Shown one piece after another: positions 40,859 through 63,829 of a DNA stretch of 64,000 nt. How positions within the stretch are numbered: the stretch's first letter is position 1; the number at the start of each line of letters is the position of its first letter. The translations under genes and the position numbers were made by a program. The stretch spans positions 1,396 through 65,395 of the forward strand of contig JAFCGA010000002.1 in NCBI GenBank assembly GCA_017608345.1, read 5' to 3'. The notes under the pieces are model-generated. The model saw only the letters and a list, made by a program, of their open reading frames with translations. It did not search any database and had not been told where the DNA came from. Origin of the DNA: Candidatus Pacearchaeota archaeon (GTDB lineage Archaea; Nanobdellota; Nanobdellia; UBA10117; JAFCGA01).

Positions 40859-41023
40859 AAGAGTATTCTCGCCAAGTAGCCATTTTCTTTTCCAGACAGG
40901 AACTAGTTCCTGTTGGCCAAGAGAATCTGCGATTCTCTCTGGCTTTGCGAAAGAAAAGAAACTAGGCATCTAAAGAAAAGAAAGCATATTGTTCGCTTCG
41001 CTCAAGAGTATTCTCGCCAAGTA
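40859..41023. mobile_element. 125-bp palindromic (MITE/REP-like) insertion flanked by 20-bp direct repeats
   Basis: AAGAGTATTCTCGCCAAGTA at 40859-40878 and 41004-41023; hairpin modules at 40892-40916 and 40917-40942. Confidence 0.8.
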
Positions 41024-41331
41024 TGTTTACACTTAGTGCATCTAAAAAATTCTGTCTCGGGCTCGTCAGATGCGCGAGTTTGCAAGGACCAATGGTAGGC
41101 TTTGCTGTTACCGCATTTTTCGCAAGGCTCTTCCAAGCTAATTGTCGCTAGAGTCTGTTCTTCACCTTCTGAAACTCCTTCACCCTTTTGCTCATTAAAC
41201 ATCTTCTCAGAAACTTTGATTCTGGCATGTTTCGTAGAGATTTTTTCATTACAGCGAGGGCATTTTACTACTTGCTTTCCATTCTCTGTTGCCGGTACAA
41301 GTATGCTCCCGCATTTATCACAAAAATTCAT
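41002..41331 (-). CDS. tfs: transcription factor S (TFS, RpoM family)
   Basis: MNFCDKCG..L, CEKCG...AY.W..QTRASDEPET.F..C..C.HTWREY. Confidence 0.93.
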   Translation of the reverse strand: MNFCDKCGSILVPATENGKQVVKCPRCNEKISTKHARIKVSEKMFNEQKGEGVSEGEEQTLATISLEEPCEKCGNSKAYHWSLQTRASDEPETEFFRCTKCKHTWREYS

Positions 41332-41393
41332 TCTGGCTCTTTCCGAGGAACGATTAATATTTAATACTTTCTAATTCAAACCCGCTAAAACTA

Positions 41394-41562
41394 CTTTTTC
41401 TTTCTTGCAACCAAGCGAACTCCGTTCGCGTGGCCAAGAGAAAGCTCGCTTTCTCTCTGGAGAAAGAAAATCTATGCTACCAAGCGGAATGAAATTCCGC
41501 GTGGCCAAGAGAAATCGAAGATTTCTCTCTGGAAAGAAAGAAGCATATTACTCACTGCGCTC
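41394..41562. repeat. modular palindromic element with four CCA...TGG hairpins
   Basis: Hairpins at 41411-41433, 41434-41460, 41480-41504 and 41505-41532; terminus AAGCATATTACTCACTGCGCTC resembles that of the 40.9-kb copy. Confidence 0.85.
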
Positions 41563-41607
41563 GAAAATAAGCAATATTCTTAAAAACGCGCAAAGTAAGT
41601 ATATTCT

Positions 41608-42504
41608 ATGCCAACGAATGTATCTGTTTATTATCTCAAGGCGGAGATGGGCTATCATGAAGCTAAGACTACGCAGGAAAAGCTCAAGGCTCTTAAGCAC
41701 ATGCTTTCTTTATCTCCTGGGCACAAAGGTGCTGAGAAGCTTAGAAAAGATATTAAAGAAAAAATAAGAAAATTAAAATATCTGAAGGAGAAGGAAAGAA
41801 AGCAAGTTAAGCGTTCTGGGCATTCGATAACTGTTAAGAAAGAAGGCGCAGCGCAGATTGTTTTTGTGGGGATTCCTAACTCTGGCAAATCGACTCTGCT
41901 TTCTAAATTATCTGGCAAATCTATTAAAATAGCAGAATATCCCTTTACTACAAAACTACCTGCTGTAAAAATGATTCCTTTTGGGGGAATTAAATTGCAA
42001 GGCGTTGAAATTCCAGCGCTTTACGAAAAAATCGAGGAAAATTCCCGCGGTCGCCAGATGCTAGCTATAATCCGAACCGCAGATTTCATAGTAGTTGTTG
42101 CAAAAGAGCGGAAGTATTTGCAGCCAGCAAAAGATATTCTAGCAGAAGTTGGAATTTACCTCGGAGCTAAAACGAAATACAGAGATGGATTTATCGAACA
42201 TATTCCTTCCCTCGATGTTGTCGGAAAAGACTTTGATAATAAGAACTTGGTAAAGAAGATTTGGCTAAAGCAAGGAAAGATACGCGTTCAGACAAAAGCT
42301 CGCGGACAGAAAGCTGCTAAGAAGCCGGTTATTTTGAAAGAAAGGGGAACAGTTGAGCAGCTAGCTAAAATAGTCCATAAAGATTTTATTAAGAAATTTC
42401 GGTACGCTAAAGTCTGGGGTCCTTCTGCTCACTTTCCGGGCGAGAAAGTTGGCTTTGAGCATAAGTTGAAGGATAGGGACGTTGTTGAGTTGTTTATGAA
42501 ATAA
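41608..42504 (+). CDS. DRG/OBG family GTPase with TGS domain (short, divergent)
   Basis: P.HKG.EK, GIPNSGKSTL, YPFTT, YAKVWGPSA.FPG..VG..H.L.D.DVVE. Confidence 0.88.
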   Translation: MPTNVSVYYLKAEMGYHEAKTTQEKLKALKHMLSLSPGHKGAEKLRKDIKEKIRKLKYLKEKERKQVKRSGHSITVKKEGAAQIVFVGIPNSGKSTLLSKLSGKSIKIAEYPFTTKLPAVKMIPFGGIKLQGVEIPALYEKIEENSRGRQMLAIIRTADFIVVVAKERKYLQPAKDILAEVGIYLGAKTKYRDGFIEHIPSLDVVGKDFDNKNLVKKIWLKQGKIRVQTKARGQKAAKKPVILKERGTVEQLAKIVHKDFIKKFRYAKVWGPSAHFPGEKVGFEHKLKDRDVVELFMK

Positions 42505-49785: not shown

Positions 49786-51054
49786 ATGCCTTGGGCAACA
49801 GAAATACTTGATGCAGTTTATAACCGTCACATTGGGCTTAATGAGCTTGAATATGAGATCGTTAAAAGCCCTAGCTATCAGCGACTCAATCGCGTACGCC
49901 AACTCGGACTTACAACTATTCTAGTCTATCCTAATGCAGATCATACGCGATTTGCACACCCGCTTGGCGTTATGCATTTAGTTGGCGGCGTAACTGGTAG
50001 CAAATATTTGAATCTTTCGTCAGAGACTAGACAGTTCTTGAGAATTGCTGCTGAAGATCATGATCTCGGTCATGGACCATTTTCGCATCAGAGCGAGGCA
50101 GTATTTGCAGCTGTATCTGGGAAAGACCATGAAGAAATACTTCCGGATATCCTTAAGGAAGAGCAGGCAGATTTGCTAGCGGATCATGGGATTGATTATA
50201 AGAAGGTCGCAGCAGTTGCACGGGGGGAACTAATGGATTATTCTGAGCTAATTCGCGGTCATTTTGATTTGGATTATTTAGATTGCTTAAAACGGGATCA
50301 GTATTTTACTGGCGCGAGATACGGAGTCCATAATTTTTCATATTTAGTATCTGTAATTCAGTTCTATGAAGATGATGCAGGTATCCAAAGACTTGCAATT
50401 AAGGAAAAAGGCAGAGTCGCATTAGAACATTTCTTTGAGGCGAAGTCGCATATGTTTGAAACAGTCTACTTTCATCATACAAATCGGATCGCTGATAAAA
50501 TGCTTACTCGTGCGTTAGAAGAGTTAGTTTTATCCAAGTATGACCCGAAATCTTATGTTGCAACGGCGCGCAGATTTGACGACGCGCAGATGCAGGTTGC
50601 TCTCGAGAATGAAGGCGGACTAACGTCTGAGTTAATGCGCGGAATATTAGATAGAAAGCTGTTGAAACAGGCTAAGGGATTATACCTATCTAAGCCACAA
50701 GTGGATGCGTTAGACTCGGAATTATTTTCTAGCTTGGAGCGAATAAGAGAAGCGAACAAAATCCGTGAAGTTGAAACTCGACTAGCAGATAAATTTGGAA
50801 TTGATGAGGGATATATTCTTCTCGATATACCTTCGCCGCCGGAGAGAGATATTTCTGATGAATCTGTAACGTCTGATGAGCTATGTTTTGTTATGGATGA
50901 TGGATCACGTAAGCCAATTACAGAAGTTTCATCTGTGTTGAAGTTCTTAAAAGAAAATACTTGGTCTAATTGGAGATTTGGTGTTTATGTTCCTGAAACA
51001 CACAGAAATAATATTGCTGTAGATTCAGTTGTTAGAATATTAAGCGGTTACTAA
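49786..51054 (+). CDS. HD-domain phosphohydrolase (SAMHD1/dNTPase-like)
   Basis: QRL..VRQLG...VYP.A.HTRF.H, HDLGHGPFSH..E, D.LD.L.RD, VYFH. Confidence 0.9.
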   Translation: MPWATEILDAVYNRHIGLNELEYEIVKSPSYQRLNRVRQLGLTTILVYPNADHTRFAHPLGVMHLVGGVTGSKYLNLSSETRQFLRIAAEDHDLGHGPFSHQSEAVFAAVSGKDHEEILPDILKEEQADLLADHGIDYKKVAAVARGELMDYSELIRGHFDLDYLDCLKRDQYFTGARYGVHNFSYLVSVIQFYEDDAGIQRLAIKEKGRVALEHFFEAKSHMFETVYFHHTNRIADKMLTRALEELVLSKYDPKSYVATARRFDDAQMQVALENEGGLTSELMRGILDRKLLKQAKGLYLSKPQVDALDSELFSSLERIREANKIREVETRLADKFGIDEGYILLDIPSPPERDISDESVTSDELCFVMDDGSRKPITEVSSVLKFLKENTWSNWRFGVYVPETHRNNIAVDSVVRILSGY

Positions 51055-51055
51055 T

Positions 51056-51145
51056 TAGCCTTTTAGAAAACCAGAGAGAAATCTTCGATTTCTCTTGGCC
51101 AAGCGGAATGTTATTCCGCTCTGGAGGCTAGCGAAAAGAAGATAA
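51056..51145. repeat. third modular palindromic element, between convergent genes
   Basis: 51071-51098 is the exact reverse complement of 41505-41532; 51099-51124 resembles 41480-41504; enclosed by TAGCCT...AGGCTA. Confidence 0.85.
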
Positions 51146-51499
51146 CTATAATGCCTGGAGTTCTTTAGTTATTTTGTCTATTTTTTCTTCTTTATCTGGA
51201 CCGATTCCCAAACAAGTCATTGTGCCGGGTTTGAGTTCTGTGTGACCAGCGTCGGTGATTAAAGCGGATATTAAGTTAGCTTGCTTAGCTTTTTTATCAA
51301 AGTCTAAAAGCTCTTTTTTGTCAGCAACTCTGAGAACAACTTTCTTAGCGCCTTCTCGTCTCCAAGATTGTAGGAGCTTCTTATCTTTCTTTAGAACTTT
51401 GAGAGCTGATTCTAGTGAAGCGTGACTGCATTGCGCTGCAGTCTTACCTTTAGACATTTTAATATCTGCGCGGATGAGAATTACTTGTTTGAAGTCCAT
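51146..51499 (-). CDS. pth2: peptidyl-tRNA hydrolase Pth2
   Basis: KQV..R.D..MSKGK.AAQ..HA, W...G.KKVVL, DAGHTE..PGT.T..GIGP. Confidence 0.95.
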   Translation of the reverse strand: MDFKQVILIRADIKMSKGKTAAQCSHASLESALKVLKKDKKLLQSWRREGAKKVVLRVADKKELLDFDKKAKQANLISALITDAGHTELKPGTMTCLGIGPDKEEKIDKITKELQAL

Positions 51500-51530
51500 A
51501 ATCAATAGAAGGGAGAGAAGTATTTAATGC

Positions 51531-60854: not shown

Positions 60855-61079
60855 TAGCGCGGGTTAGATTTGAACTAACGACCTACGGGTCTCTCTAGCC
60901 TTTATTTCGGAGCGAAAGTAAAGTAAAATGCTTCTCTTTCTTTCCCCAGGGTTTCTTTCTCTTCGCAAGAGAAAGAAAGGCTGTATGAGCCCGTCGGGCA
61001 CCTTCTGCAACCAAAGCTGAGCTATCTTCTTTTCGCCAACCTTTTTTTAAAAGGTTGTTCCAGACTGCCCCACCGCGCT
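60855..61079 (-). tRNA. initiator tRNA-Met (CAT) with two introns (61002-61058 in D-loop; 60891-60983 at 37/38)
   Basis: Spliced: AGCGCGG TG GGGC AGTCTGGAGT GCCC G ACGGG CTCATAA CCCGT AGGTC GTTAG TTCAAAT CTAAC CCGCGCT A; A1-U72 pair and three G-C pairs in anticodon stem; BHB-like junctions; CCA not encoded. Confidence 0.92.
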
Positions 61080-62878: not shown

Positions 62879-63760
62879 ATGCTATGGATTGTCTTGGCCA
62901 TATTAACGGCAGTGATATGGGCAGCTGTGAATGTTTTAGACAAAATCTATCTGACAAAGTGGGTCCGCCAGCCGATGGTTCCGGTTATAATGCTGACTAT
63001 TTTTGGCGTAGTTTCGGTGCTTATTATCTACTTTGTGAAAGGCATAGCGAAGCTCTCATCTTTTCATCTCTTCATAGCTTTGATGTCGGGCGTTACATGG
63101 ATAGCCATGGCAATATTCTATTTTAAGGCGATTCAACTCGAAGAAGTATCAAGAGCAGCGCCTCTATTTTATGTAAATATTATTTTTGTCTTGATTCTCG
63201 CGACAATATTCTTAGGAGAGCGTTTTACATCTCTGAAATATCTTGGAGTCCTCCTATTGGGTGTAGGTGCAATAACGCTCTCCACTCGGAGCATACGTAT
63301 AAAGTTCAATAAAGCATTCTGGTTAATGTTATTAGCTTCATTACTAGTCGCAGTATCTACTATCTTAATGAAGTACCTATTGAATTTCACAGATTATTGG
63401 AGTGCTTTTGCATATAGACAAATTGGAGTTGGGCTTACAGCAATTCCGATATTATTACTATTTATGCCTGAGCTGATTAGAACTGTAAAACAACACGGTA
63501 CGAAGGTCCTTATAGCTATGTCTGCAGCTGAAATTGGTAATCTCACGGCTCTACTCCTCATAACGGTAGCGCTATCTATTGGTTTTGCTACATTAGTAAA
63601 TGCGCTCGTATCTGTACAGGTGATTTTTGTATTCTTATTTTCAATTATCCTTAGCACCTTCTATCCAAAGATATTAAGCGAGAAAATAACTAAGCCGATT
63701 ATTGTGCAGAAAATAATTTCGCTGGCGTTAATGGTAGCCGGTGCAGTTTTAGTTGCTTGA
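62879..63760 (+). CDS. EamA/DMT family transporter
   Basis: Ten TM segments, N.LDK, EEVSR..P, FLGE. Confidence 0.88.
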   Translation: MLWIVLAILTAVIWAAVNVLDKIYLTKWVRQPMVPVIMLTIFGVVSVLIIYFVKGIAKLSSFHLFIALMSGVTWIAMAIFYFKAIQLEEVSRAAPLFYVNIIFVLILATIFLGERFTSLKYLGVLLLGVGAITLSTRSIRIKFNKAFWLMLLASLLVAVSTILMKYLLNFTDYWSAFAYRQIGVGLTAIPILLLFMPELIRTVKQHGTKVLIAMSAAEIGNLTALLLITVALSIGFATLVNALVSVQVIFVFLFSIILSTFYPKILSEKITKPIIVQKIISLALMVAGAVLVA

Positions 63761-63829
63761 GCATAGCGATTTCTAAAGGAAAGGTTTTTAAGAATTCTAT
63801 CTGACGTCATTATTATGGCTAAGGTGAGT

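Follow-up and report, generated by a model that had tools for sequence, protein, structure and literature searches.

Introduction

Related introns are shared between different tRNA genes in the Thermoproteales, a situation that passages of PMC4033280 and of a 2026 Asgard preprint trace to a 'large-scale tRNA intron transposition' (Fujishima et al. 2010). In eukaryotes, spliceosomal introns are created by transposable elements termed introners, as set out in part of PMC9860276. A tRNA-Thr gene of Caldiarchaeum, according to a section of Sugahara et al. 2012 (PMC3293823), is disrupted by a 1.8-kb recombinase-encoding element. Dispersed repeats with an intrastrand triplex structure are described from bacteria as BoxC, PIT and TM (Holder et al. 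2015, PMC4666352). Passages of that paper define the 'class II' order on one strand as a pyrimidine tract, a purine tract and a reverse-Hoogsteen purine tract, and tie the bacterial repeats to genome rearrangement and polymerase arrest. The same passages report that purine-motif triplexes do not form in RNA, which counts against a triplex in RNA.

The locus described here bears on how archaeal tRNA introns arrive. It is an initiator-type tRNA(CAT) gene with two introns, located in a 64,000-nt stretch of DNA (the window, meaning the whole stretch analysed) from a 1.05-Mb assembly that is 88% complete (G000). On balance, the two introns are probably copies of a genome-wide family of non-coding structured elements, a non-autonomous mobile DNA element that is spliceable in RNA genes.

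The interrupted tRNA(CAT) gene

The gene, its introns and the parts of intron 2 are arranged as follows.

60855..61079, minus strand: initiator-type tRNA(CAT) gene (spliced ARAGORN score and precursor fold)
61079-61059, 61001-60984 and 60890-60855, minus strand: exons of the tRNA(CAT) gene
61002..61058, minus strand: intron 1, 57 nt, in the D-loop (BHB pair counts and BLAST relatives)
60891..60983, minus strand: intron 2, 93 nt, at position 37/38 (BHB pair counts and HMM)
60967..60978, minus strand: pyrimidine tract Y of intron 2
60952..60962, minus strand: purine tract R1 of intron 2, inverted complement of Y in the hairpin stem
60944-60951, minus strand: 8-nt turn before R2 of intron 2
60931..60943, minus strand: purine tract R2 of intron 2, mirror of R1 and hence parallel complement of Y
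60901..60930, minus strand: conserved tail of intron 2, common to intergenic copies

Cutting out 61058..61002 and 60983..60891 yields a canonical cloverleaf that ARAGORN scores at 117.2 as a tRNA(CAT). An A1:U72 pair and an anticodon stem whose foot consists of three G:C pairs were read from the sequence, and CCA is not encoded in the gene. Folded without constraints, the 225-nt precursor gives the cloverleaf, its two introns extending the arms (z = -3.49), and none of 200 shuffles folds as well. The bulge-helix-bulge (BHB) was defined by two 3-nt bulges, a 4-bp helix between them and flanking helices. Intron 1 has all four central pairs, five inner pairs, five outer pairs and one extra unpaired base; intron 2 has three of the four central pairs with five inner and five outer pairs. 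The genome carries one splicing endonuclease gene (PF01974 match at G000:C6:49291-49551, E = 1.4e-28) and one RtcB ligase gene (PF01139 match at C10:10548-11846, E = 4e-160). With the restored cloverleaf, the BHB-compatible boundaries and these two genes, the inserts have the features of archaeal BHB introns, and both are predicted to be spliced. The introns of 57 nt and 93 nt returned by the splice-and-test pipeline agree with those of a preliminary description of this DNA; the range of 60891-61058 given there has the final base of intron 2 and the opening base of intron 1 as its limits.

Standard tools are a poor guide to such genes, which is a practical warning. ARAGORN without introns and Rfam at the gathering score detected no tRNA in the window, and standard tools saw only eight tRNAs, all intron-less, in the genome. 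Running ARAGORN after removal of a single interval per locus solved only single-intron cases and mis-called the initiator gene. A generic BHB scan, which produced about 612 candidates per region-strand and kept the 36 best of each region, gave only 31 accepted models and was replaced. The tRNA models reported here were solved by a search anchored on the T-arm and the acceptor stem. Introns are carried by 29 of the 33 solved models, with 52 introns in total.

Layout of the module

Intron 2 is a full module with mutually pairing ends, AGCC ... GGCT. The order of the module on one strand is Y, a short loop, R1, a tight turn, R2 and a conserved tail with a variable hairpin, in which Y is a pyrimidine tract, R1 is the inverted complement of Y and R2 is the purine mirror image of R1. 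Intron 1 is a miniature module in which a short pyrimidine/purine hairpin is followed by a GGCG turn, then by a purine tract and finally by a tail. Judged from the order of its tracts, the layout of the module is that of a class II (purine-motif) intrastrand triplex, a structure that the three tracts may actually adopt. Ordinary antiparallel pairing of R2 with Y is excluded, because R2 mirrors R1 and does not repeat it.

Genome-wide comparisons showed that a loose scan finds the three-tract arrangement at 75 loci in the real genome vs. 9-15 loci in block-shuffled genomes. The mirror match of R2 is longer than the direct match at 52 of the 75 loci, shorter at 6 and equal at 17. Among 41 strong loci, the mirror is longer at 36, shorter at 2 and equal at 3, in agreement with the class II order. 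The mirror is kept by at least nine different tract variants and also by copies in relatives, and this three-way covariation shows a structure that is apparently under selection. Because its tracts are not in register, the 21-copy alignment yielded no consensus pair with RNAalifold, and the resulting model (model R1) is therefore sequence-only.

The preliminary description had held that the tRNA introns share sequence with dispersed hairpin elements. The strings on which it relied lie at 60945..60910 on the minus strand, at 41531-41562 and with an end at 41003, and the stem TTTCTTTCTCTT / AAGAGAAAGAAA is located in intron 2. The kinship stands. However, what is shared is the pyrimidine/purine/mirror-purine module together with the tail, not the double hairpin. 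The latter, built of bulged imperfect palindromes, is an element in its own right, in many cases nested in the module and also found alone.

Relatedness of the introns to copies outside tRNA genes

The relatedness of the introns was assessed with an HMM whose seeds were 12 non-tRNA copies only. Searched over the whole genome, intron 2 scores 30.0 bits (E = 2.4e-7). None of 1000 dinucleotide shuffles of intron 2 reaches this score (maximum 13.2 bits), and none of 1000 does so when the hairpin is kept and the remainder is shuffled (maximum 24.7 bits). The shuffles refute a chance likeness for intron 2. The nearest relative of its tail is G000:C14:45192-45272, with a 42-nt match of 88% identity (BLAST and nearest-neighbour table).

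Intron 1 gives no match to the long-type HMM (2.3 bits, which 18 of 1000 shuffles reach). Its 14-nt match to the copy at 51.1 kb, also part of the preliminary description, was found at window 51131-51144 and is not significant alone (BLAST E = 0.70). BLAST does give intron 1 significant relatives. One is the D-loop intron of tRNA-Leu(TAG) (C2:89620-89589, 29 of 32 nt, E = 1.8e-4), and the others, G000:C3:7097-7135 (E = 3e-6) and C1:175299-175330 (E = 1.8e-4), are situated in mRNA leaders. By eye, the layout of the 51.1-kb copy minus its nested double hairpin equals that of these relatives. The resemblance thus withstands shuffled controls for intron 2, whereas that of intron 1 rests on these other relatives rather than on the 14-nt match.

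At E <= 0.01 the HMM matches 35 places. Of these, 13 fall within tRNA genes; the other 22, among which the 12 seeds are counted, do not. The module is present in 17 tRNA introns, which amount to 17 of the 23 introns of at least 55 nt, and in two inserts of the 16S gene. A further 20 or so copies adjoin gene ends, and target duplications of 10-20 nt flank three of these. An alignment of 11 non-tRNA and 10 tRNA copies contains both tail variants in both contexts, and the nearest neighbour of 4 of the 10 tRNA copies is a non-tRNA copy. Nearest neighbours cross the contexts in 5 of 21 cases vs. 11 ± 2.6 for shuffled labels (P = 0.016); the copies partly cluster by context. The HMM, the shuffles and the alignment together bear out the earlier proposal of one non-coding family in BHB introns and at non-genic sites.

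All 17 module-bearing tRNA introns have the module in sense orientation, with none in antisense, and the copies in the 16S gene are likewise sense as read from the matches. Intergenic copies have both orientations relative to the neighbouring genes.

Copies in the window and duplicated targets

Copies outside tRNA genes in the window have the following features.

40859..40878, no strand: left copy of a perfect 20-nt direct repeat (repeat search and script)
40879..41003, plus strand: non-tRNA module copy, HMM E = 1.6e-8, at the 3' end of a minus-strand TFS-like gene
40892-40942: double hairpin nested in the pyrimidine tract of the 40879..41003 copy
41004..41023, no strand: right copy of the same 20-nt repeat (repeat search; frame read by eye)
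41394..41572, plus strand: composite copy made of Y, a double hairpin, R1, a second double hairpin, and R2 with the tail
41411-41460 and 41480-41532: first and second double hairpins of the composite copy
49786-51054: HD-domain protein gene, convergent neighbour of the next copy
51057..51146, plus strand: miniature module with a nested double hairpin at 51071-51124
51146-51505: peptidyl-tRNA hydrolase-like protein gene, the other convergent neighbour

The perfect 20-nt repeat encloses the copy at the end of the TFS-like gene. Its left copy corresponds to the end, TAA stop included, that the TFS-like reading frame originally had, and its right copy, as read by eye, is the last 20 nt of the reading frame now used, with the stop codon rebuilt across the element junction. 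The TFS-like gene and a gene starting at 41609 diverge from each other, and the composite copy separates their starts. The copy at 51057..51146 occupies the entire gap between the stop codons of its two convergent neighbours.

Two further copies in G000 have flanking repeats of 19 nt and 10 nt. Among the 21 strong non-tRNA loci of this genome, a flanking direct repeat of at least 10 nt is present at only 3 and absent at 18. Four repeats in relatives, selected by eye among some 22 non-intron copies that were viewed, measure 52 nt (a tRNA 3' end), 17 nt (another tRNA 3' end), 16 nt (a tRNA 5' end) and 15 nt (the start of an S6e-like gene). The region of the 52-nt repeat has other tandem duplications, and slippage could explain this repeat. 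The copy at C12:39793 and a copy in G006 are flanked by duplicated gene starts. Elements are also nested within elements, and a miniature module is found inside mRNA-leader hairpins in both orientations. Apart from an ambiguity of 3-5 nt at the T-loop site, the tRNA introns are not flanked by duplications. No filled/empty site pair was seen; G000 has no close relative in the collections searched.

Searches of the 88%-complete assembly gave no match to PF01797 (Y1 transposase), PF07282 (TnpB), PF01609 (DDE_Tnp_1), PF00665 (rve) or PF01867 (Cas1), and none to a reverse transcriptase. Two tyrosine recombinases (PF00589) are present. A site-specific recombinase acting at one att site is excluded, as the duplicated targets all differ.

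Distribution in the order

The family occurs in 20 of 39 genomes of the order, in tRNA introns, rRNA introns and intergenic sites, and 19 of 39 genomes lack it. The order-level relatives have genomes of 0.3-1.2 Mb, and the module is conserved across families of the order. The abundance of the family tracks the degree of tRNA gene interruption, with a Spearman correlation of -0.51 between family abundance and uninterrupted tRNA hits (n = 39). The genomes with few uninterrupted tRNA genes all carry the family, which makes it a credible source of tRNA introns, as had been suggested.

The tRNA-Leu(CAA) gene differs between genomes: in G023 its intron measures 100 nt and contains the module, in G031 the intron is 29 nt long and lacks the module, and in G011 the gene is uninterrupted. 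For G016, 18 matches stand beside 31 uninterrupted tRNA hits; of the nine copies viewed there, none is an intron. In relatives, copies with a T-rich tract begin immediately behind the 3' end of a tRNA or 5S gene (L331, L333 and L337), and a duplicated tRNA fragment lies beside an intact gene at L341 (G003) and at L330 / L125 (G016). One family is thus seen in three states in one order: intergenic copies, some with a duplicated target, insertions beside duplicated tRNA ends, and spliceable introns.

Metagenome loci found with the Pth2-like protein are from distant relatives only (at most 65% identity), and their 501 kb contain no convincing family member; one nhmmer match has E = 0.03, and 23 loose mirror hits resemble low-complexity noise. 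Scans with 14-mers, which are too short for specificity, gave nine nhmmer matches in other genome and viral contigs, mostly extending little beyond the 14-mer; L221, at model positions 8-51, is among them.

Discussion

Under the favoured reading, the element would be copied into new sites, often with a long target duplication of variable length (15-52 nt), and copies would persist in a compact genome only where they are harmless. Such sites would be the short gaps beside start and stop codons, where the duplication may rebuild the gene end. In tRNA and rRNA genes, the ends AGCC ... GGCT and a few purines would pair mutually and with the exon to give a BHB, and the splicing endonuclease and RtcB ligase of the host could then remove the element from the RNA. 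The lack of a reverse transcriptase match in the 88%-complete assembly, the two orientations and the target duplications favour insertion at the DNA level, with introns as places of survival in RNA genes. The spread would then have been from intergenic sites to introns.

A broader reading, held only tentatively, is that the tRNA and rRNA introns of the order come mainly from a triplex-forming DNA element, enzyme-less or mobilised in trans and generating long target duplications, which would be the BHB counterpart of introners. L341, L330 and L125 could then be snapshots before the intron state. The three-tract single strand might be prone to copying, for example through stalled replication and template switching.

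An unlikely alternative is a functional structure selected by the host, either a terminator or RNA 3'-end module or a site for a processing or chaperone protein that aids folding of interrupted precursors, the likeness of the copies being due to selection and occasional local duplication. The conservation of the module across families of the order, its three-way covariation, its sense orientation in 17 of 17 module-bearing tRNA introns and its position directly after tRNA or 5S 3' ends in relatives agree with such a function, as do several sense copies located 5-9 nt after a stop codon (C4:54148, C1:243257, C4:60137 and C14:45267). However, a T-rich terminator in 17 tRNA introns and the 16S gene would hurt expression, and the tandem-gene contexts, counted by eye, have 2 sense vs. 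5-6 antisense copies. A host function also fits poorly with the conservation of the unstructured tail between contexts, the rebuilding of gene ends by target duplications, the nesting of other elements in the module, the miniature modules of both orientations in mRNA-leader hairpins and the absence of the module from 19 of 39 genomes.

Excised archaeal introns circularise, and the preliminary description had offered spread as intron-derived circular RNA. RtcB-circularised introns would be reverse-spliced or ligated at BHB-like sites and copied to DNA, and the intergenic copies would derive from introns. The splicing endonuclease and RtcB genes and the sense orientation in all RNA genes are compatible with this route. 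So are near-identical introns in different tRNA genes, namely the D-loop introns at C1:65063 and C1:60619 (97% identity). This proposal is not supported and appears quite improbable, since the 88%-complete assembly gave no match to a reverse transcriptase, and the intergenic copies have both orientations, often outside an obvious transcript direction. In addition, the intergenic copies have no intron-type closing ends but a different closure directly after R1, the target duplications of 15-52 nt point to DNA events, and the viewed copies of G016 are non-intronic in a genome with many uninterrupted tRNA hits.

Very improbably, the intergenic copies are remnants of decayed intron-bearing tRNA genes. 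Some non-intron copies do adjoin tRNA genes (C6:38544-38642 and C10:40110-40164), and tRNA 5' or 3' fragments lie beside copies in relatives. However, these fragments duplicate an intact neighbouring gene, the 40879..41003 copy is flanked by 20 nt of protein-coding sequence, the copies at C12:39793 and in G006 have duplicated gene starts at their flanks, and no tRNA-like exon was found around the 12 seeds (Rfam at E <= 10 and the splice pipeline). Chance likeness of purine-rich low-complexity stretches, to which the tracts themselves, the isolated 14-nt match and the mirror loci of the shuffled genomes would lend some colour, can be dismissed in view of the intron 2 score and whole-genome E-value, the excess of mirror loci in the real genome and a tail that is conserved though not of low complexity.

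Comparison with known systems

A literature search, with subscription-only papers and supplements outside its scope, found no description of tRNA introns with the three-tract layout or with intergenic relatives. MITEs and REP/BIME doublets are small, structured, multi-copy elements that are mostly intergenic and nested. The double hairpin resembles their paired imperfect palindromes, each with a bulged base. However, the terminal pairing of the present elements is only 4 nt (AGCC / GGCT), the flanking repeats vary between 10 and 52 nt instead of having a fixed length, and no cognate transposase was found in the 88%-complete assembly; the elements thus do not fit the MITE type. Nor do they fit hairpin elements derived from IS200/IS605, as imperfect palindromes are present but no Y1 transposase or TnpB was found in that assembly.

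The duplicated tRNA fragment beside an intact gene at L341 and L330 / L125 recalls the described part of the Caldiarchaeum case, together with its link to intron gain. In contrast to that 1.8-kb element, the inserts are 47-190 nt long, non-coding and present in tens of copies. By analogy with the introners as partly described, a multi-copy element would be tolerated in genes through host splicing, with waves of intron gain confined to some lineages and absent from their relatives. The analogy is one of mechanism rather than membership: a protein endonuclease and the BHB take the place of the spliceosome, RNA genes and not protein genes serve as hosts, and a transposase is not known.

Like BoxC, PIT and TM in the passages available, the family is a dispersed, conserved, non-coding repeat with the class II tract order. 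Those repeats are described as G/C-rich and intergenic with a triplex demonstrated in vitro, whereas the archaeal family is A/T-rich, has a conserved tail and resides in most long tRNA introns and some rRNA introns, and its putative triplex is likened to theirs by layout. A further counterpart is found in the Thermoproteales as portrayed in the passages cited above. In both cases, one genome has similar BHB introns in several tRNA species and at several positions, and genes with two or three introns are numerous. Examples from G000 are intron 1 and the tRNA-Leu(TAG) D-loop intron, the D-loop introns at C1:65063 and C1:60619, and the T-loop introns of Gly(CCC) and Glu(TTC), both 45 nt long and nearly identical. 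The passages of PMC4033280 and the section of the Asgard preprint mention no intergenic relatives for the Thermoproteales. In the present lineage, that of a small-genome archaeon, the introns have homologous non-intron copies beside protein genes, some with target duplications, and share with them a defined three-tract structure.

Initiator tRNA gene and its two introns

A tRNA gene with the anticodon CAT was read from the sequence on the minus strand of the window. Its A1:U72 pair and the three G:C pairs at the base of its anticodon stem mark it as initiator-type. No tRNA was found in the entire window by ARAGORN without introns or by Rfam at the gathering score.

Features of the initiator tRNA gene (window positions)
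61079..60855, minus strand: tRNA gene, anticodon CAT
61058..61002, minus strand: intron 1, 57 nt, in the D-loop
60983..60891, minus strand: intron 2, 93 nt, between positions 37 and 38

Exactly these two introns were recovered by a splice pipeline that proceeds from a T-arm and acceptor-stem anchor through a list of bulge-helix-bulge (BHB) candidates to splicing in silico and ARAGORN scoring. The central/inner/outer pair counts of the BHBs are 4/5/5 for intron 1 and 3/5/5 for intron 2, and the spliced product scores 117.2. Folded without constraints, the 225-nt precursor gives a cloverleaf in which the two introns extend the arms (z = -3.49). The range marked in the preliminary description, 60891..61058, extends from the last base of intron 2 to the first base of intron 1 and thus delimits the same pair; all the strings quoted there were found in the sequence where it had placed them.

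Anatomy of the shared module

Self-comparison of the source genome (G000, contigs C1-C15) linked 126 short repeat loci (median length 92 nt) into one connected set, which also includes unrelated repeat families linked only by adjoining or lying inside module copies. The module common to introns and intergenic copies consists, in order, of a pyrimidine tract (Y), a loop of 3-4 nt, the inverted complement of Y (R1), a tight turn, a second purine tract (R2) and a tail. The tail has three parts: a conserved box of the GCA type, a hairpin with compensating changes in its variable stem, and a TCGAAAATAA-like box. R2 is the mirror image of R1, not a repeat of it. Among 75 loci found with a 7-nt seed, the mirror match exceeds the direct match in length in 52, falls short of it in 6 and equals it in 17; for the 41 loci whose mirror match reaches at least 9 nt, the corresponding numbers are 36, 2 and 3. 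Block-shuffled genomes contain 9-15 mirror loci compared with the 75 of the real genome, and the mirror is kept in at least nine different tract variants, also in copies from other genomes. At the level of sequence, these comparisons demonstrate covariation of the three tracts.

Holder et al. (PMC4666352) assign the order Y-R1-R2 on one strand to class II, purine-motif intrastrand triplexes and state that RNA does not form purine-motif triplexes. If so, the relevant form would be single-stranded DNA or the antisense strand; the latter has a pyrimidine-motif layout. The shared unit had been taken for a hairpin element in the preliminary description, but the double hairpin is a different unit from the module. 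It has two bulged imperfect palindromes with a TGGCCA core between them, is nested in some intergenic and intronic module copies, and elsewhere stands by itself.

Similarity of the introns to copies outside tRNA genes

A long-type HMM was built from an alignment of 12 copies outside tRNA genes and searched against the genome. Intron 2 matches model positions 5-88 with 30 bits (E = 2.4e-7), compared with maxima of 13.2 bits for its dinucleotide shuffles and 24.7 bits for shuffles with the hairpin retained (n = 1000 and 0/1000 at the real score for each). The resemblance proposed for intron 2 thus withstands shuffled controls, and chance similarity is excluded for it. In BLAST comparisons, the intron 2 hairpin is identical at 26/26 positions to those of the copies at C12:39792 and C14:45268, and its tail matches C14:45232-45192 at 37/42.

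Intron 1 scores only 2.3 bits with the long-type HMM, i.e. no match. The 14-nt match to the 51.1-kb copy reported for it exists but is not significant alone (BLAST E = 0.70). BLAST also matched intron 1 to C3:7097-7135 (E = 3e-6), C1:175299-175330 (E = 1.8e-4) and the D-loop intron of tRNA-Leu(TAG) (E = 1.8e-4). The first two lie outside tRNA genes in the loop of a conserved mRNA-leader hairpin, with opposite orientations relative to it. By eye, the 51.1-kb copy minus its nested double hairpin has the same miniature layout as the relatives of intron 1. Together, the alignments establish a family relationship across intron and non-tRNA contexts.

Distribution in tRNA and rRNA genes

Only 8 intron-less tRNA genes were found in the source genome by ARAGORN, and 14 tRNA matches lie above the Rfam cut-off. 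In this draft assembly of 15 contigs, the splice pipeline, based on our own BHB rules and ARAGORN and confined to regions in which repeats or Rfam hits served as seeds, gave 33 tRNA gene models at a score of at least 114, including the initiator; at least three are only partly solved (C1:60468-60635, C7:15158-15317 and C14:53631-53798), and some isotype labels are ARAGORN's and wrong. Of the 33 models, 29 have introns, 52 in total. The module occurs in 17 of these introns, all among the 23 that are at least 55 nt long, and always in the sense orientation (17 sense, 0 antisense). An intron of 26-136 nt occupies a single shared T-loop site, after GGTTC and before AAATCC, in 17/33 solved genes. 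Some introns at this site are near-identical without the three-tract module, e.g. the 45-nt ones of Gly(CCC), Glu(TTC) and Cys(GCA).

The 16S gene is 1663 nt long compared with a model of 1478 positions and has two inserts carrying the module; no module inserts were found in the 23S gene of this genome. The HMM of non-tRNA copies matches 35 places at E <= 0.01: 13 within tRNA genes and 22 outside them, the latter including the 12 seeds. The 41 strong mirror loci divide into 20 in tRNA genes and 21 outside, one of the latter in the 16S gene and one, at a contig end, of uncertain context. Separately, a tRNA with the anticodon CAT (elongator Met or Ile2 type; C1:91449-91533, Rfam 58.9 bits) has a seeming 13-nt insert on the 5' side of the anticodon loop and is called a 'stop' tRNA by ARAGORN without introns.

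Copies outside RNA genes

These copies occupy short gaps of the compact genome. The start of several lies 5-9 nt beyond a stop codon; two directly adjoin a start codon of the opposite strand, and further ones lie between divergent starts. By our own reading, both orientations relative to neighbouring genes occur. Some are flanked by direct repeats.

Direct repeats flanking non-intron copies (the four in relatives were chosen by eye)
Window 40879-41003: 20 nt, perfect, the last 20 nt of a TFS-like reading frame
C1:133264-133310: 19 nt
C12:39793: 10 nt
Relative: 52 nt, perfect, over a tRNA 3' end; other tandem duplications in the region
Relative: 17 nt, perfect, tRNA-Val 3' end
Relative: 16 nt, 94% identical, tRNA-Ala 5' end
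Relative: 15 nt, 93% identical, start of an S6e-like gene

The TFS/RpoM-like zinc-ribbon gene (window 41020-41340, minus strand) retains an intact reading frame, because gene end and inserted element together recreate a stop codon at their junction; downstream of the element, the original stop persists with its 20 nt. At C12:39793, the element is preceded by a diverged duplication of the initial codons of the gene downstream. No flanking repeat of at least 10 nt was found at 18 of the 21 strong non-tRNA loci or around tRNA introns. The copies cluster partly by context, with 5/21 nearest neighbours crossing context vs. 11 +/- 2.6 with shuffled labels. For 4/10 tRNA copies, intron 2 included, the closest relative is a non-tRNA copy.

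Occurrence in the order

A sequence-only model from 21 copies was used to search 39 genomes of the order, in which the source genome is the sole member of its family and genus in the collection. Matches occur in 20/39 genomes, with 50 in the source genome and at most 19 in any other; in one family of very small genomes, only 1/11 has a match. The 17 best loci of relatives comprise 6 tRNA introns, 2 Rfam-confirmed rRNA introns (one 23S, one 16S), 7 copies outside RNA genes and 2 apparently spurious matches. In a second batch of 20 loci, genome G016 contributed 9, all non-intron and 3 directly beside or after tRNA 3' ends, G003 contributed 3 introns and 5 other copies, and 2 of the 3 loci of G019 have intron copies, both near the anticodon.

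With tRNA hits at E <= 1e-6 counted as a proxy for uninterrupted tRNA genes, family matches rise as tRNA hits fall (Spearman -0.51, n = 39, related genomes not being independent). The family is carried by 10/10 genomes with at most 12 hits vs. 10/29 others, a threshold picked post hoc. In G016 and G003, the family is abundant and the tRNA genes are nonetheless whole. The tRNA-Leu(CAA) intron is 100 nt with the module in G023, 29 nt without it in G031 and absent from G011. In another relative (G017), ~200 nt downstream of the 23S gene, L118:1425-1725 weakly matches archaeal RNase P RNA (38 bits, below the gathering score of 84) and may represent a divergent or interrupted form of this RNA.

Other repeats and motifs

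On the plus strand, window 63752-63790 carries a promoter-like conserved motif (a ATAGCGATTTCTAAAG-type box, a purine tract and a TTTTTAAG-type box) ~25 nt upstream of the ATG at 63816. It recurs at many gene starts, e.g. C15:6982, C15:7864, C12:32509 and C1:242624, and its purine tract is similar to R1. Downstream of a conserved hairpin of the ACACGTCGGAAGC ... GCTTCCTCGTGTC type, a second hairpin stops a few nucleotides short of a start codon; the pair looks like an mRNA-leader structure common to a gene set. Related strings also occur within Lys/Glu-rich coding regions, and copies of the miniature module and of the double hairpin lie nested in or beside this structure. Another dispersed repeat of 100-160 nt, mostly intergenic, contains a long imperfect hairpin and a constant GGAATTTCTGTTTAT-like end, and a further family consists of tandem short hairpins from a TATAAAACTTGCG-type unit. 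Contigs C4, C6, C13, C14 and C15 have very long internal repeats, with as much as 6 kb made up of repeated units; they form a repeat component of their own, probably within giant repetitive protein genes.

Positions of other repeats in the source genome
ACACGTCGGAAGC ... GCTTCCTCGTGTC-type hairpin (outside the window): C13:19327-19395, C1:20457-20553, C1:190124-190221, C10:9322-9385, C11:23165-23325, others
GGAATTTCTGTTTAT-end repeat: C1:105366, C6:57265, C7:24498, C7:35132, C10:49418, C10:65051, C10:114282, C10:114884, C11:42228, C14:62536
TATAAAACTTGCG-unit family: C1:6314, C1:100943, C1:101502, C1:163795, C10:116438, C12:19703, C14:33566

Discussion

We interpret the family as a non-autonomous mobile DNA element, because sequence identity reaches into unconstrained parts, elements nest within elements, intergenic copies are oriented either way, gene ends are rebuilt by target duplications and presence across the order is patchy. 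The main rival to this reading is a structure selected by the host, e.g. a terminator or processing site. Spread of the family through RNA is less likely.

As a mobile DNA element, the family would persist in RNA genes only where its paired ends and a few purines form a BHB with the exon, which would explain the strict sense orientation there. Copying may be a replication-linked copy-and-paste by template switching at the stall-prone structure. We favour this over a dedicated transposase because duplication lengths vary and no transposase was found; it is the weakest step of the argument. The genome has genes for one splicing endonuclease, one RtcB and two tyrosine recombinases; reverse transcriptase, Y1 transposase, TnpB, DDE_Tnp_1, rve and Cas1 have no match in the 88%-complete assembly, which does not prove their absence.

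In the main text of open papers, no family was found that combines four properties: being a dispersed repeat of triplex type, making up most of the long tRNA introns, occurring as an rRNA intron, and occurring as intergenic insertions with duplicated targets. The literature reports dispersed class II triplex repeats in bacteria (PMC4666352), a recombinase-bearing element splitting a tRNA gene in Caldiarchaeum (PMC3293823) and intron-creating transposons in eukaryotes (PMC9860276). Intron families common to several tRNA genes are described for Thermoproteales, and the source genome likewise has intron families across different tRNA genes.
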